64,000 bases of DNA from Octopus sinensis (lineage: Eukaryota), in assembly GCF_006345805.1 (NCBI RefSeq), contig NC_042999.1, positions 126,790,001-126,854,000 on the forward strand, given 5' to 3'. Below are positions 6,345 to 57,775 of the stretch, in pieces. The notes below the pieces were generated by a model, which ran no database searches, had not been told where the DNA came from, and saw nothing but the letters and a program-made list of their open reading frames with translations. Every line of letters starts with the position of its first letter. Position 1 is the stretch's first letter. The translations under genes were made by a program, and so were the position numbers.

Positions 6345-6771
6345 TATACATACATGCATACATACATGCATACATACATGCATATATACATGCTCTAAGT
6401 TAGAAGCTGGCTCTTTCTCTATTGGCAAGAAATCTTGAAATATAACTGAGTAATAACATACCACTGTATATATATATATATATATATAATATATATATAT
6501 ATAATAATAATTTCCTTTATATATATATATATATATAAAGAAAATTATTAGTTAGAAGTTATGCAGCCATCTAAGGGATAAAGTGTATCCGTAGGCACTA
6601 CTGGTATATTACCTCACTATGTATAGTCCTAGCTAAAAGGTATGCAGTAGTTGGTAATTTAAAGGTAAAATCATGGTTTAATATATACAGAAAAGAAAAG
6701 AAATGGATCAATAAATAACAATGAGAAGTTGATCATTGGTATTAAAAGGTCACAGTTTAATTGTAGTTCAG

Positions 6772-6856
6772 AATCATTTACAGCTGTTTCTGTTTATCAA
6801 ATTGAAGTAAATTTGCATTTATCTCATTCCATTTAACAAACATCGTCAGAATGATT
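6772..6856 (-). ncRNA. Type I hammerhead ribozyme (long stem II, palindromic minimal stem III)
   Basis: AAUCAUU-CUGACGA-UGUUUGUUAAAU..AUUUGAUAAACA-GAAAC-AGCU-GUA-AAUGAUU; all core nucleotides present, perfect 7-bp stem I. Confidence 0.8.
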
Positions 6857-7304
6857 TAGAGGAATATAAATAGGAGAAAACTGGAAATGAAAGGAAAAGG
6901 AAAAGGCAAAAGAAAAAGGAAAAAGTTTGTTAAGTCTTTAGGCTTACATTTTAGTGACTCTTTGGGTTCCATGTGTGTGTATGTTTCTTCAGTTAGATGA
7001 ATGGAGCCATAAGTGGGGAAAATGACTAGTTGACTGGCAGTGTTAGTTGAAGGAGTTATATCTAGTGGAGATATCCAGTGTTGTTAATTGTAATATATAA
7101 CACTATTAGTGACTGCTAGGTTAGTTCCTATGATTACAAATGATGCCCTTGTTAAAAACTAAGGATACTTTTTAAAGTTAGTACGACATAATGTATATAT
7201 ATGAGCTACATAAAGGAATAATAAAAAAGGTAAAGAGTAAATAAATAAAAAAATACTTTTCCTTTTCCTTTCATTTCCCTTTTTCTCCAATTTATATTCC
7301 TCTA

Positions 7305-7389
7305 AATCATTCTGATGATGTTTGTTAAATGAAACGAGATAAATTCAAATTTACTTCGATTTGATAAACAGAAACATCTGTAAATGGTT
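7305..7389 (+). ncRNA. Type I hammerhead ribozyme, sister copy
   Basis: AAUCAUU-CUGAUGA(7312-7318)-12-bp stem II-GAAAC(7371)-AUCU-GUA(7380-7382)-AAUGGUU. Confidence 0.75.
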
Positions 7390-7629
7390 CTGAACTACAA
7401 TTAAACTATGACCTTTTAATACCAATAATAAACTTTTCATTGTTATATACACACACACAGATACATACGAATATGTATATATTTATATATATACACATAT
7501 ATATGCATACTCTCATGCATACATAAATAGATACATATATGCATATATATATATATATGTGTGTATATGTGCATGTATGTTTGTGTGAATGCATGTAAGT
7601 GCATGCATATATATGAGCATTGGTAATAA

Positions 7630-20101: not shown

Positions 20102-21896
20102 ATGTATATGTCACTGCTTTTTACTGAGAAATTGAAAGGAACATATTATGAAAAGGCCCAACAGTACAGTCAGCAGAAAATAATGAGAGACCTAAAATCC
20201 ATGTTAATCCTATACAAAGAAGGGCTCATTGACAAAGAATATGACTATATGACCAATTTCAAAAGTAAAACCAGTCAATTCTATGGTATTCCCAAGATAC
20301 ACAAAAGTGAGAAAATAAGTAATGCATGCAAGATAGCCACAGACAATAATCAAAGTCCCTACTCCCAATGACCTCAAATTGAGACCTATAATAGCAGGTC
20401 CCGCATGCGAAACCCACTGCCTCAGTAACTTTTTAGATATCCTCTTAAAACCATTCCTCAAGCATGTCAAAAGCTATATAAGGGACGACCTGGATATGCT
20501 CAATCACCTTCCTAAAACAATAAACAAAAACATCCTACTAGTATCCTTCAATGTTGTCAACCTCTATTCCAATATCCCCCACAACCTAGGAATAGAGGCA
20601 ATTCAATTCTGGCACATCAAAAAAGAATTCGTGATAGAAGGGCTAAAATTCATCCTGGAAAATAACTACTTCGTCTTCAAAGACAACTTTTACCAACAAA
20701 AATCGGGGACTGCAATGGGTATGAGAATGGCCCCCACCTTTGCTAACCTAGTCATGGGATATCTAGAAATTAGTCTTTATTGTAAGGTTCTAGAAAAATA
20801 TAGCAGCCCAATCTCCCTCTACATAGAAAATAACTTGAAGAGATACCTGGATGACTGTTTCATTCTTTGGCATGAAAATAAAGAGAAACTTAAAGAATTC
20901 CAAGCACTTTTAAATGGACCTGACGTAAACATTCAATTTACGATGGAATATAGCCAGCAACAACTTCCCTTCCTCGACATCCTCATTAAGAAATCTAAGA
21001 GCGTAATAGAAACAGATATATACTATAAGCCTACGGACACCAAGCAATATCTACCATTCAAATCATGCCACCCCAGACACACCAGAATGAATATCCTCTT
21101 TCAACCTAGCAAAAAGGATATGTACTATAGTTTCTAATGTAAACACCAGAGACACACAACCACATGAACTAAAAGATACACTCATCACCAGGAACTACCC
21201 GCCTTCACTAATTGACATGCTTTCAATAGGCCCTTCAACTGAACATCCAGGAGCTCAGACATCCCAAATTAAAGAAAGATTTACAACCAAAAGCTCTACC
21301 ATACATTCCCACACACAACCCTCTCAACAATGAAGCCTTCGACACCATCCTCCAAAACATACCCCTGCTAAAAAAGGACCACAGAATGAACTTAATCCTC
21401 CAAACATACCATCATAAAAAGCAAAAGACAACCCAAATCTATGAAAAGTTTCCTAACACAAGCCCGAATATGTACAACAACACAGAAGCTGTCAATAAAA
21501 AAATGTGGAAGGCTCAACTGTGGGATATGCGTCAATTTAATTGAGGGATCAGAGTTCTCCTTCAAACAGGGACAACATTTCACAGTGAAAAGCAACTTCA
21601 TATGTACTTAGGAGAACCTTATATACGCACTAACCTGCTCTGGGTGTCAAGGACAATATATAGGCAAAACAAAAACAAGTCTAAGTAAAAGAATGGCTTT
21701 GCACAGATCCCAGATCAAAATTCCCCAAAACAGAAAAATAGCATTCAGCCAACACATAGACATTTGCACCAATAACAAAAATCCAAGCTTCAGAATTTTT
21801 CCCCTCAACCAATTCAGGGACGATACAACCTGGAGCCAACGAATCAATAAAGAGACTCTCTTTATTACAAAATACAGACCCCTTTTGAACAAATGA
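20102..21896 (+). mobile_element. Penelope-like element, RT plus GIY-YIG pseudogene (5' truncated, stops and frameshifts)
   Basis: FYGIPKIHK, RPIIAG, GTAMG..APTFANLVM, RYLDD, LPFLD, YYKPT, SCHP; CG..NCGIC, LIYALTCSGCQGQYIGKT..R..H..E..LN. Confidence 0.93.
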
Positions 21897-31177: not shown

Positions 31178-32400
31178 TAGAAAACAGATTCCATCACACT
31201 CCAGGGGGAGAAACTAGAAGTAGTTGATAGTTTCCGCTACCTGGGTGACCAAGTTAGTAGTGGAGGTGGATGCACAGAGAGTATCACCACTAGAATACGA
31301 ATAGCCTGGGCAAAGTTCAGAAAGCTTCTACCCCTACTGGCGACAAAGGGTCTCTCGCTCAGAGCGAAAGGTAGATTGTATGATGCATGTGTGCGAACTG
31401 CCATGCTTCACGGTAGTGAAACATGGGCTGTGACTGCAGAGGACATGCGTAGACTTGAAAGAAATGAAGCTAGCATGATCCGCTGGATGTGTAATGTCAG
31501 TGTGCATGCATGACAGAGTGTAAGCACCCTAAGAGAAATGCTGGATATAAGAAGCATCAGATGTGGTGTGCAAGAGCGACGCTTGCGATGGTATGGTCAT
31601 GTACTGCGGATGGATGAGGAGAGATGTGTGAAGAAGTGCCACTCCCAAACAGTTGAAGATATCAGGGGGAGAGGTAGACCCAGGAATACATGGGATGAGG
31701 TAGTCAAGCATGACCTCAGAGCGTTGGGCCTCACTGAGGCAATGGCAAAGGACCGAGATCTCTGGAGATATGCTGTGACTGCAAAGACCCGGGCTGCTTC
31801 CTGCATCAGTTCTGCATAGCCCCTGCCCATTCAAAGTACCCTGGATCCCAGAACGTCCTGCTGTGCTTGAGAAGGCCTGTTGAGTCAAGTACATGAACAT
31901 GAACGTCGAAATAAATATCAATGGAAATAGTAGTTGTGATGCCTGTGCCGGTGGCACATAAAAAGCACTATCCGAACGTGGCCGATGCCAGCACCGCCCC
32001 GACTGGCTTCTGTGCCGGTGGCACATAAAAAGCACCATTTGAACGTGGCCGATGCCAGCGCCATTCCGACTGGCTTCTGTGCCGGTGGCACATGAAAAGC
32101 ACCATCCGAATGTTGCCAGCACCGCCTTTGCTGGCTTCCGTGCCACTGGCATGTTAAAAGCTCCAACCGATTGTGGCCAATGCCGGACCCCCCCTGGCAC
32201 CTGTGCAGGTGGCACGTAAAAAGCACCCACTACACTCACGGAGTGGTTGGCGTTAGAAAGGGCATCCAGCCGTAGAAACTCTGCCAGATCAGACTGGAGC
32301 CTGGAGCAGTCCCTGGCTTCCCAGACCCCGGTCGAACCGTCCAACCCGTGCTAGCACGGAAAACGGACGTTAAACGATGATGATGATGATGATGATGATG
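31178..32400 (+). mobile_element. RTE LINE, young 5'-truncated copy with 67-bp 3' UTR repeats and (GAT)n tail
   Basis: LEVVDSFRYLGD..MLHGSETW..RLRWYGHVLRMDEERCVKK..RGRGRPR; highly similar to 55117-57780. Confidence 0.95.
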
Positions 32401-42875: not shown

Positions 42876-43400
42876 ATGATAAATAATAACAACGATAGAA
42901 ATAATAATAATAGTAGCAATGTTAATAACCTAGACCAATCCACCCCCATCTCTAACCTCTCTTCAAACAGTATTACTTCCTCCATTCCTAAGAATAATCC
43001 CCACAATGTACTACCATGTAACTGCTACCCTGGGATCACTTGCCCTCTACAAACCTGTTGCAGGAGATCTAATGTAATTTACAAATGCACCATCCTCAAC
43101 ACGCTACACAATTCTACAACTATATATATAAACTTTAAACAGAGATATGCTGCACATCTCAATTCTTTTAGATATGATAAACACAGTAAATCCACAACTC
43201 TCACCAGTCACATACATCTTCTTAAAAATAGCTTTTGATAAGTTAAAAGAAAAAAAAAATATTTTTGGCAAACATTGACCCAAACTTGCCAACTTGCCAA
43301 TTTAAGAGAATCCCTATTCCAATAACTTGAACCTGTCTGGCCTAATGTGCCAAAATTGTTCTTTCTTTAATAAAACTGTTATCAAAATGTCACATGTATA
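42876..43400 (+). pseudogene. Penelope-like GIY-YIG fragment
   Basis: CNCYPGITCPLQTCCRRSNVIYKCTI..FKQRYAAHLNSFRY..STTLTSHI. Confidence 0.75.
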
Positions 43401-55116: not shown

Positions 55117-57775
55117 CATCATCATCATCATCATCATCATCGTTTAACATCCGTTTTCCGCGCTAGCACGGGTTGGACGGTTCGACCGGGGTCTGGGGAG
55201 CCAGGGGCTGCCCCAGGCTCCAGTCTGATCTGGCAGTGTTTCTACAGCTGGATGCCCTTCCTAACGCCAACCACTCCGCGAGTGTAGTGGGTGCTTTTTA
55301 TGTGCCACCTGCACAGGTGCCAGAGGGGTCTGGCATCGGCCACGATCGGTTGGTGCTTTTTTTATGTGCCACCGGCACCGAAGCCAGTCAAGGCGGTGCT
55401 GGCATTGGCCATGTTCGGATGGTGCTTTTTATGTGCCACCGGCACAGAAGCCATTCGAGGCAGGCTTGGCATCGGTCACGTTCGGATGGTGCTTTTTATG
55501 TGCCACCGGCACAGAAGCCAGTGGAGGCTGCACTGGCAACGGCCACGTTCGGATGGTGCTTTTTATGTGTCACCGGCACAGGTATCACAACTACTGTTTC
55601 TATTGATATTTGGTTCGATGTTCATGTACATGCACTTGACTCAACAGGTCTCCTCAAGCACAGCGAGATGTTCCGGGATCCCATGATCGGTTGGTGCTTT
55701 TTATGTGCCACTGGCACAGAATCCAGTCGAGGCGGTGCTGGCGTCGGCCACGTTCGGATGGTGCTTTTTATGTGCCACCAGCACAGAAGCCAGTCGGGGC
55801 GGTGCTGGCATCGGCCACGTTCGGATGGTGCTTTTTATGTGCCACTGGCACAGAAGCCATTCGAGGCGGGGTTGGCATCGGTCACGTTCGGATGGTGCTT
55901 TTTATGTGCCACCGGCACAGAAGCCAGTGGAGGCTGCACTGGCGACGGCCATGTTCAGATAGTGCTTTTTATGTGTCACCGGTACAGGTATCACAGCTAC
56001 TGTTTCTATTGATATTTGGTTCGATGTTCATGTATATGCACTTGACTCGACAGGTCTCCTCAAGCACAGCGAGATGTTCCAGGATCCAAGGTACTTTGAA
56101 TGGGCAGGGGGTATGCGGAACTGGTGCCGGAAGCATCCCGGGTCTTAGTAGTCACAGCACATCTCCAGAGATCTCGGTCCTTCGCCATTGCCTCAGTGAG
56201 GCCCAACGCTCTGAGGTCATGCTTGACTACCTCATCCCATGTCTTCCTGGGTCTACCTCTCCCCCTGATTCCTTCAACTGTTCGGGAGTGGCACTGCCGT
56301 GAAGCATGGCAGTTCGCACACATGCATCATACAATCTACCTTTCACTCTGAGTGAGAGACCCTTTGTCGCCAGTAGGGGTAGGAGCTTTCTAAACTTTGC
56401 CCAGGCTATTCGTATTCTAGTGGTGACACTCTCTGAGCATCCACCGCCACTACTAACTTGGTCACCCAGGTAGCAGAAACTATCAACTACTTCTAGTTTC
56501 TTCCCCTGGAGTGTGATGGAATCTGTTTTTTGAGTATCTGTGGTGTCTATTGTCCCTGTGCATCTGCCGCACATGAAAGCTATCTTATCAGTTAATTTCC
56601 CTTTGATGTTGCTGCACCTCTTATGCGTCCATAGCTTACACTGGGTGCATCTTATGGAGTTTCTACCTACACCTTTCCTACAGCTCGAGCAGGGCCACCT
56701 GCCCGATGGGGTGTGTGCTGAGTTTGCCTTTCTGCATACTATAACTTTGGTCTTCGCTACATTTACTCTAAGGCCCTTAGATTCTAACCCTTGTTTCCAC
56801 ACCCGAAATTTCTTTTTTAGTTCCGGTAGTGATTCTGCTATGAGGGCCAGGTCATCAGCATAGAGAAGCTCCCAGGGGCAACCTGTTTTGAATTCCTCTG
56901 TTATTGCCTGGAGGACTATGATGAATAAAAGGGGACTGAGGGCTGAGCCCTGGTGTACACCTACTTCTACCCGGAATTCTTCACTATATTCGTTGCCAAT
57001 CCTAACCTTGCTGACAGCCTCTCTGTATAGAGCCTGTACAGCCCTTATTAGCCATTCGTCATTCAACAGTTTCTGCATCGACCACCAGATAAGGGATCGG
57101 GGAACCCTGTCAAAGGCTTTCTCCAAGTCCACAAAAGCTATGTAGAGGGGTTTATCTTTAGCTAGGTACTTCTCCTGCAGTTGTCGGACCAGGAATATAG
57201 CATCAGTGGTGCTTCTACCTGGCACAAAACCGAACTGCATCTCATCTAAGCAAATTCTCTCCCTAATGAGATGGGTTATGACCCTCTCTGTGGTCTTCAT
57301 CACCTGATCCAACAGTTTAATACCCCTGTAGTTATTTCTATCTAGAGTATCACCCTTACCCTTGTAGCAGTTGACTATGGTGCTGCTACGCCAGTCATTG
57401 GGTATGACTCCATTATGAACTACCTGGTTAACAATACGGGTGACTAGGCCATAGCCTGCATAACCAGCTGTTTTAAGCATCTCAGCAGTGATTCCTGATG
57501 GGCCAGGGGCTTTACCCGGTTTCATATCCTTAATTGCTTTATCTACTAGGGAGCTGTCTATTCGGATAGCTGGTCCCTCTACTGGGTCAACATTTGGCAG
57601 GCTCTCCTCCTCCCATTCATTCTCCACATTCAGCAGTCTTTCATAATGGCTTCTCCAAGCCTCTTTCTTTTCACCAACATTAAAGGCAAGTGCCCCATCA
57701 TCCATGCGGACACATTTCTCTCCTGTAACATCACTATTTTCTCTCACACACTGTCTAGTAATACGAAATACTTCA

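Follow-up and report, generated by a model that had tools for sequence, protein, structure and literature searches.

Does this locus hold a working pair of ribozymes? In a 64,000-nucleotide stretch of Octopus sinensis DNA (the window), an earlier note had described two hammerhead ribozymes with a very long stem II and a palindromic stem III, lying on opposite strands, and had taken them for a pair belonging to a non-coding element dependent on Penelope-like retrotransposons (PLEs). The analysis below leads us to a different reading, which we hold with considerable confidence: the locus holds what is left of a decayed Hydra-clade PLE insertion, in which one motif was copied twice; the motif is likely inactive here, and its long stem II is likely selected. 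The locus itself is ordinary, and its significance lies in the family context of the long stem II.

The hammerhead motifs and the inverted duplication

Both type I motifs were present where the earlier note had placed them (Table 1). Each consists of a 7-bp stem I, CUGA(C/U)GA, a 52-nt stem II domain composed of 12 basal pairs and an upper hairpin, and GAAAC-4nt-GUA, so that the CUGANGA, GAAA and UH core elements occur in the type I order with three helices. A loose descriptor matched the whole window at just these two sites, against an average of 0.017 loose and 0 strict hits in each of 60 dinucleotide-shuffled windows, and stem II by itself folded at z -3.6. The locus motif is a genuine hammerhead motif, found within a known kind of element and in a known arrangement. 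Opposite-strand pairs of PLE hammerheads 100-700 bp apart have already been reported by Cervera and de la Pena (PMC4209133), and an inverted 5'-truncated PLE copy is among the cases described by Craig et al. (PMC8557442).

Table 1. Coordinates of the features discussed. Positions are those of the window unless a locus is given.
Feature	Coordinates	Strand	Basis or remark
(TA)n microsatellite, left end	6467..6537	.	repeat call
Hydra-clade PLE copy, 5'-truncated, 3'UTR only	6538..7255	-	80-84%, colinear with L048, L049, L050 and L075
Optional 3' tail, ~145 nt	6538..6684	-	copy end points
Minus hammerhead, type I	6772..6856	-	motif reading, descriptor match and stem II fold
Minus motif, stem I	6856-6850/6778-6772	-	
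Minus motif, core	6849-6843	-	
Minus motif, stem II	6842-6791	-	52 nt
Minus motif, GAAA	6790-6787	-	
Minus motif, palindrome ACAGCUGU	6787-6780	-	predicted cut after 6779
Inverted shorter 3'UTR copy	7256..7449	+	194 nt, 92% identity; matches 6905-6712
Plus hammerhead, second copy	7305..7389	+	palindrome broken (AUCU); predicted cut after 7382
TA/CA microsatellite, right end	7445..7560	.	
947-aa Hydra-type ORF	L080:1788-4628 (G000:C26:1190500-1197500)		intact, in partial tandem, ~5.6 kb unit

The two motifs are 78/85 identical because both sit in the arms of a single inverted duplication (6712-6905 and 7256-7449). The supposed pair of ribozymes is therefore one observation and not two. The palindromic stem III is intact in the minus copy but not in the plus copy, where AUCU represents a rare state (2/40 copies, with G in 38/40); this change is predicted to weaken the homoduplex from -11.1 to -1.1 kcal/mol, destroying its 8 bp. 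The core difference at position 7 is a C>T change at a CpG (31 C and 8 T in 39 copies) and is therefore not evidence of selection. The G-U pair noted in stem I proved to be the usual state of the family (30/40 copies). In minimum-energy monomer folds the core was mispaired and the active fold was ~5 kcal/mol worse, which is what a partner-dependent motif should show, and stem III is predicted to be stable only as a dimer. Since the motifs lie on opposite strands, no single transcript carries both in sense; in read-through RNA, 80-81 of the 85 hammerhead bases are predicted to pair with the antisense arm. By this modelling the pair is unable to dimerise in cis.

The arrangement of the copies accounts for the inversion. 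The left and inverted copies meet head-to-head at 7255/7256, and the left copy starts ~230-320 nt past the end of the endonuclease frame in longer copies. Beyond the left arm, homology extends across the spacer as far as 7255 and then, in longer copies, into broken GIY-YIG endonuclease and RT frames, which identifies the left copy as the 3'UTR of a minus-strand element truncated at its 5' end. Most copies have their 3' ends near 6681-6689, with a subset extending to ~6540. The left (TA)n tract is the likely insertion target, and most other copies likewise finish in (TA)n or another microsatellite. Among close neighbours (<=3 kb) in a sample of the first 100 listed sites for each of two stem-III motifs, 20/23 were divergent, 3/23 were on the same strand and 0/23 were convergent. 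The opposite-strand pair is a by-product of copying, not a designed pair, and the locus is an ordinary dead PLE fragment whose hammerheads are likely inactive.

Inverted arms of 194 nt flanking a 350-nt spacer might also be taken for the terminal inverted repeats of a DNA transposon or MITE that resembles a hammerhead by chance. We regard this as scarcely credible, because the motif is far beyond chance, the left-arm homology passes through the spacer and beyond, and most copies have one arm alone; it is refuted by the RT link and by a 5' truncation that varies among copies. Other inverted structures occur in the window: a MITE-like inverted repeat without a hammerhead, its 215-nt arms 85% identical and 128 nt apart (61616-61830/61959-62173), and inverted copies of a >1 kb element with a 67-bp tandem array (31181-32400 and 55117-56529).

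The parent element and its copies

The link to PLEs made in the earlier note was borne out by longer colinear copies with RT and GIY-YIG remnants upstream on the same strand. The description of the element as non-coding and PLE-dependent has to be abandoned, since the left copy aligns colinearly with the 3'UTRs of copies bearing these remnants. Broken remnants of RT followed by a C-terminal GIY-YIG in one ORF were found in the colinear loci L049, L075, L076 and L077, so that the locus is a remnant of a coding element and not a non-coding retrozyme. Neighbours in Atlas bear GIY-YIG, RVT_1 and HTH_animal domains. At least 350 candidate arm copies were found in the 2.72-Gb genome, and 40 of them were scored.

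These copies also bear on the idea of a retrozyme-like, non-coding PLE-dependent element, bounded by a functional hammerhead pair and making processed or circular RNA. Such an element would agree with the window copy's lack of protein-coding capacity and with the proposal that non-LTR retrozymes derive from PLE pLTRs (bioRxiv 10.64898/2026.07.22.740005), but it is very improbable: the unit is not repeated in tandem on one strand at the locus, inversion points vary between copies, longer copies continue into RT/EN frames, the plus palindrome is broken and the read-through RNA folds back.

A protein search with the EN fragment recovered an intact sister ORF of 947 aa, P0001, which contains RWR, DKT, YRDD and CxCx5C motifs, a C-terminal GIY-YIG without CCHH, and CxxC/CxH. 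The DKT lies at position 138 and RWR (not RWK) at position 37, a region that the window's own family did not yield. The CxCx5C linker, the EN without CCHH, and the CxxC and CxH near the end occur both in the window's family and in P0001; a (TA)n insertion preference, 5' truncation and inverted or tandem copies are all present. These motifs, compared by eye with passages on Hydra-1_Obim, appear to fit the Hydra clade as defined in section 11 of PMC8557442. Pfam returned nothing informative for P0001 or the EN fragment, and PDB gave 0 matches. A Naiad placement, suspected at first from the EN motif, was ruled out because the EN is C-terminal and without CCHH.

P0001 has a long Asn-rich linker and belongs to a tandem whose repeats are 98% identical, with a 2.3-kb 3'UTR. 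The 3' end of this element gave at least 1156 candidate copies, the top 40 of which were at >=99%, and the element was therefore recently active. Optional 3' tails were observed both in this element (~180 nt, L080:1476-1658) and in the window (~145 nt). Contigs of two other organisms (runs X5 and X6) span all 30 bins of 6545-7445, so that the family is common to relatives. Two further PLE-like fragments were seen: a Hydra-like GIY-YIG fragment in the window (42999-43232, plus strand; 36% to P0001), near which no hammerhead was found, and a different PLE-like ORF fragment with CxxC ahead of GIY-YIG (L088:4854-5609, plus strand), unmatched in the other loci compared.

The end points of the copies indicate what kind of RNA was inserted. 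Only 1/30 copies with the element's 5' region starts <=5 nt from the predicted cut site and 5' ends do not pile up there, the starts of more diverged copies reflecting alignment loss; the element's 3' ends lie ~90-190 nt past the predicted cut site. Inserted copies therefore come from uncut RNA. Contigs of two runs presumed to be RNA contained scattered pieces of the family, none of them joined or ending at the cut site, although contigs cannot show ends. In Poseidon PAc, insertion uses uncut RNA as its template, reads ending at the cut site are absent and cleavage needs the protein (PMC11167929); the role of PLE hammerheads is treated as unresolved in PMC8557442 and PMC11167929.

A plausible sequence of events is that the element's GIY-YIG nuclease nicked the (TA)n tract, that the RT copied the element RNA from near its 3' end and stopped early, and that a second priming event produced the inverted copy. 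Where the element is active and in tandem, cleavage would be expected after GUH; two hammerheads would likely pair through their 8-bp stem III palindromes to form the active dimer, and the element's protein may help cleavage in tandem transcripts. The long stem II would most likely serve the RNP of the element as an arm, structural or protein-binding, that sets the timing of ribozyme folding.

The long stem II across the genome

The stem-III 12-mer GAAACAGCTGTA occurs 19,154 times in the genome vs 201 for its reversed control, and GAAACGATCGTA occurs 9,912 times vs 339, giving 29,066 vs 540 for both together. Complete hammerheads were recognised by score at 27/60 loci (21 and 6 for the two 12-mers) vs 0/600 random positions, the scored loci being the first 30 for each 12-mer, taken from one chromosome end and including paired sites. 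Stem II was >=52 nt in 23 of the 27, a share that is inflated because the score penalised CCGANGA cores and several short (20-29 nt) forms were therefore dropped. By extrapolation from these 60 loci, the genome likely holds ~10,000 long-armed hammerheads in related elements.

Clustering of 60 distinct motifs gave 23 families with a stem II of 14-128 nt, 16 of which reached >=49 nt. The loop was palindromic in 20/23 family representatives (AGCT, GATC, ACGT and TCGA, the first two being chosen by the searches and the last two not); the letters of the palindrome vary among families while palindromy is kept. Six length classes (52/53, 59, 60, 68, 85 and 100 nt) were linked to Hydra, lying on the same strand downstream of Hydra-type EN sequence. 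For the 57, 58, 63, 87 and 97-nt families, no ORF was linked within the flanking stretches examined. The stem II domains of nine representatives folded at z -2.0 to -6.5 vs mononucleotide shuffles. A CCGANGA (U4C) core recurs in several families with a short (20-29 nt) or 100-nt stem II (L154, L159, L164, L173-L175, L177, L181 and L085), and the window contains a possible decayed hammerhead with a TATA palindrome, a 47-50 nt stem II and a weak stem I (21123-21191, minus strand).

The earlier note had anticipated that such forms escape standard models, and this was confirmed: Rfam gave no hammerhead match, including to Hammerhead_1 (RF00163), on 6700-7450 at E<=10. Over the whole window it returned 130 matches at E<=1, none of them a hammerhead and nearly all of them microsatellite, and at the gathering threshold it gave 0 hits in 10 loci with long and short forms. 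At L201, Rfam found a form with a 14-nt stem II (E 1.1e-5) and missed an 85-nt form in the same stretch. A metagenome scan for the core, 40-70 nt and an AGCT stem III returned at least 118 stretches, 11 of which scored >=10; none had a convincing stem I and stem II or a Hydra ORF, and they were treated as chance.

Evidence for selection on stem II is clearest in the 85-nt family. Among 54 copies, which are related and were mostly found with hammerhead-containing queries, stem II varies by 1.7% vs 11-12% in the flanks, and recurrent alleles occur in 2/85 stem II columns vs 65/206 flank columns. In comparisons of copies selected by their ORFs, L080 and L084 share 81/85 stem II positions vs 1628/1972 aligned positions in the upstream UTR (~83%), and L080 and L082 share 84/85 with an aligned upstream UTR at ~94%. 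Six shared changes fall in paired columns; 4, including the 3 commonest, keep pairing and 2 break it. The GC content of this stem II is 46% vs 17-21% in the flanks, which could lower its mutation rate.

Signals in the 52-nt class were weaker. Across 59 sequences, 82.1% of cells were paired vs 78.1% when shuffled and <=41.7% when slid, pairs changed on both sides numbered 10 where 12.5 were expected, and in a sister subfamily the pairing of outer stem I breaks down, as do three pairs of stem II. Within the window's family, stem II varies by 7.6% vs 8.0% in the flanks. The excess conservation of core over flanks that the earlier note had proposed as a check was seen in 40 copies when all non-CpG changes were counted (4.3% vs 8.0%, p 0.006) but not among rare changes (3.5% vs 3.9%, p 0.79), shared changes carrying the difference, and it was not significant (p 0.36) in the 9 copies that queries lacking the hammerhead had recovered. 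This pattern fits selection in master elements followed by neutral decay.

A neutral origin of the long stem II within the same element deserves serious weight, although we do not favour it. Here loop II would tolerate insertions and AT-rich 3'UTRs would gather hairpins, with only the core and basal pairs mattering, which agrees with the 14-128 nt spread across the 23 families, the (TA)n expansion that one family's stem II holds, the weak covariation of the 52-nt class and the flank-like variability in the window's family. Against it stand the near invariance of the 85-nt stem II while the UTR diverged, the pairing kept by most of the shared changes, and the folding of the nine representatives. 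The existence of short forms (14-29 nt) and the wide differences in stem II length and sequence between families argue against one fixed function for the extension. On these sequence data we consider the long stem II a lineage trait, likely kept by selection in master elements.

A bolder version is that stem II in this lineage is a selected domain of 50-100 nt, probably an RT-endonuclease docking or gating arm, with about ten thousand hammerheads unseen by standard descriptors, and that the same blind spot may partly explain the reported absence of hammerheads from Naiads; we offer this tentatively, as doubtful in its entirety. The hammerhead search described in PMC8557442 capped spacers at 17 nt, and its accounts include eight Naiads described as "half core", their gaps being 35-50 nt, and Naiad PLEs without hammerheads. 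Hammerheads of this kind are undercounted, and may be wrongly reported as absent, in censuses with an upper limit on stem II length. The roles of ribozyme and extension can be tested directly in the young family, whose copies are 99% identical, whose ORF is intact and whose 85-nt stem II is nearly invariant.

Comparison with known systems

The element resembles Hydra-1_Obim, Hydra-1_Amil and Penelope-1_NV (PMC8557442) in its C-terminal GIY-YIG without CCHH, DKT and CxCx5C linker, and published Hydra PLEs in its (TA)n targets, its inverted 5'-truncated copy and its 3'UTR type I hammerhead with an ACAG..CUGU-type stem III (PMC8557442, File S2). The hammerhead and protein of Hydra-1_Obim differ, so that the present element is another family. 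Whereas the stem II of published Hydra hammerheads has 3-7 bp and a 3-10 nt loop (PMC8557442, File S2), that described here spans 52-100 nt; the sister unit is ~5.6 kb with a 2.3-kb 3'UTR, vs "generally <3 kb" for Hydra, and tails are 145-180 nt vs the 30-40 bp PLE tail (PMC8557442). None of five core 11-mers was found in the Craig supplement (PMC8557442), in which line breaks could hide a match.

With the minimal PLE hammerheads of PMC4209133 the motif shares its pLTR location, palindromic helix III, predicted dimer action and opposite-strand pairs. Helix II is 6-8 bp in those hammerheads and longer in the window's family, where U10.1-A11.1 replaces their conserved G-C. Poseidon PAc (PMC11167929) belongs to a different clade, and its uncut-RNA template agrees with the copy ends observed here. 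Non-LTR retrozymes (PMC7229834) share a type I hammerhead with a short palindromic helix III but are non-coding same-strand tandem repeats of ~300 bp, whereas the locus is a fragment left by truncation of a coding element: instead of a same-strand tandem unit with a hammerhead in each repeat, the arrangement is inverted and continues into coding sequence in longer copies.

In the literature searched, hammerheads with a long stem II were not reported for cephalopod or Hydra PLEs, although earlier surveys and supplements may contain such forms. PLEs with an extended stem II do have a direct precedent in the spike-moss elements PLE-X1_sMoe and PLE-X1_sTam (Craig File S2), in which this domain measures about 50 nt (53 nt in PLE-X1_sMoe) and was flagged as deviating from the canonical form. 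As presented there, these cases are isolated, from a plant and EN-minus, whereas in the octopus the structured and conserved extension belongs to a radiation of many families. What is apparently new is a stem II that is long, structured and, it seems, selected across many families.
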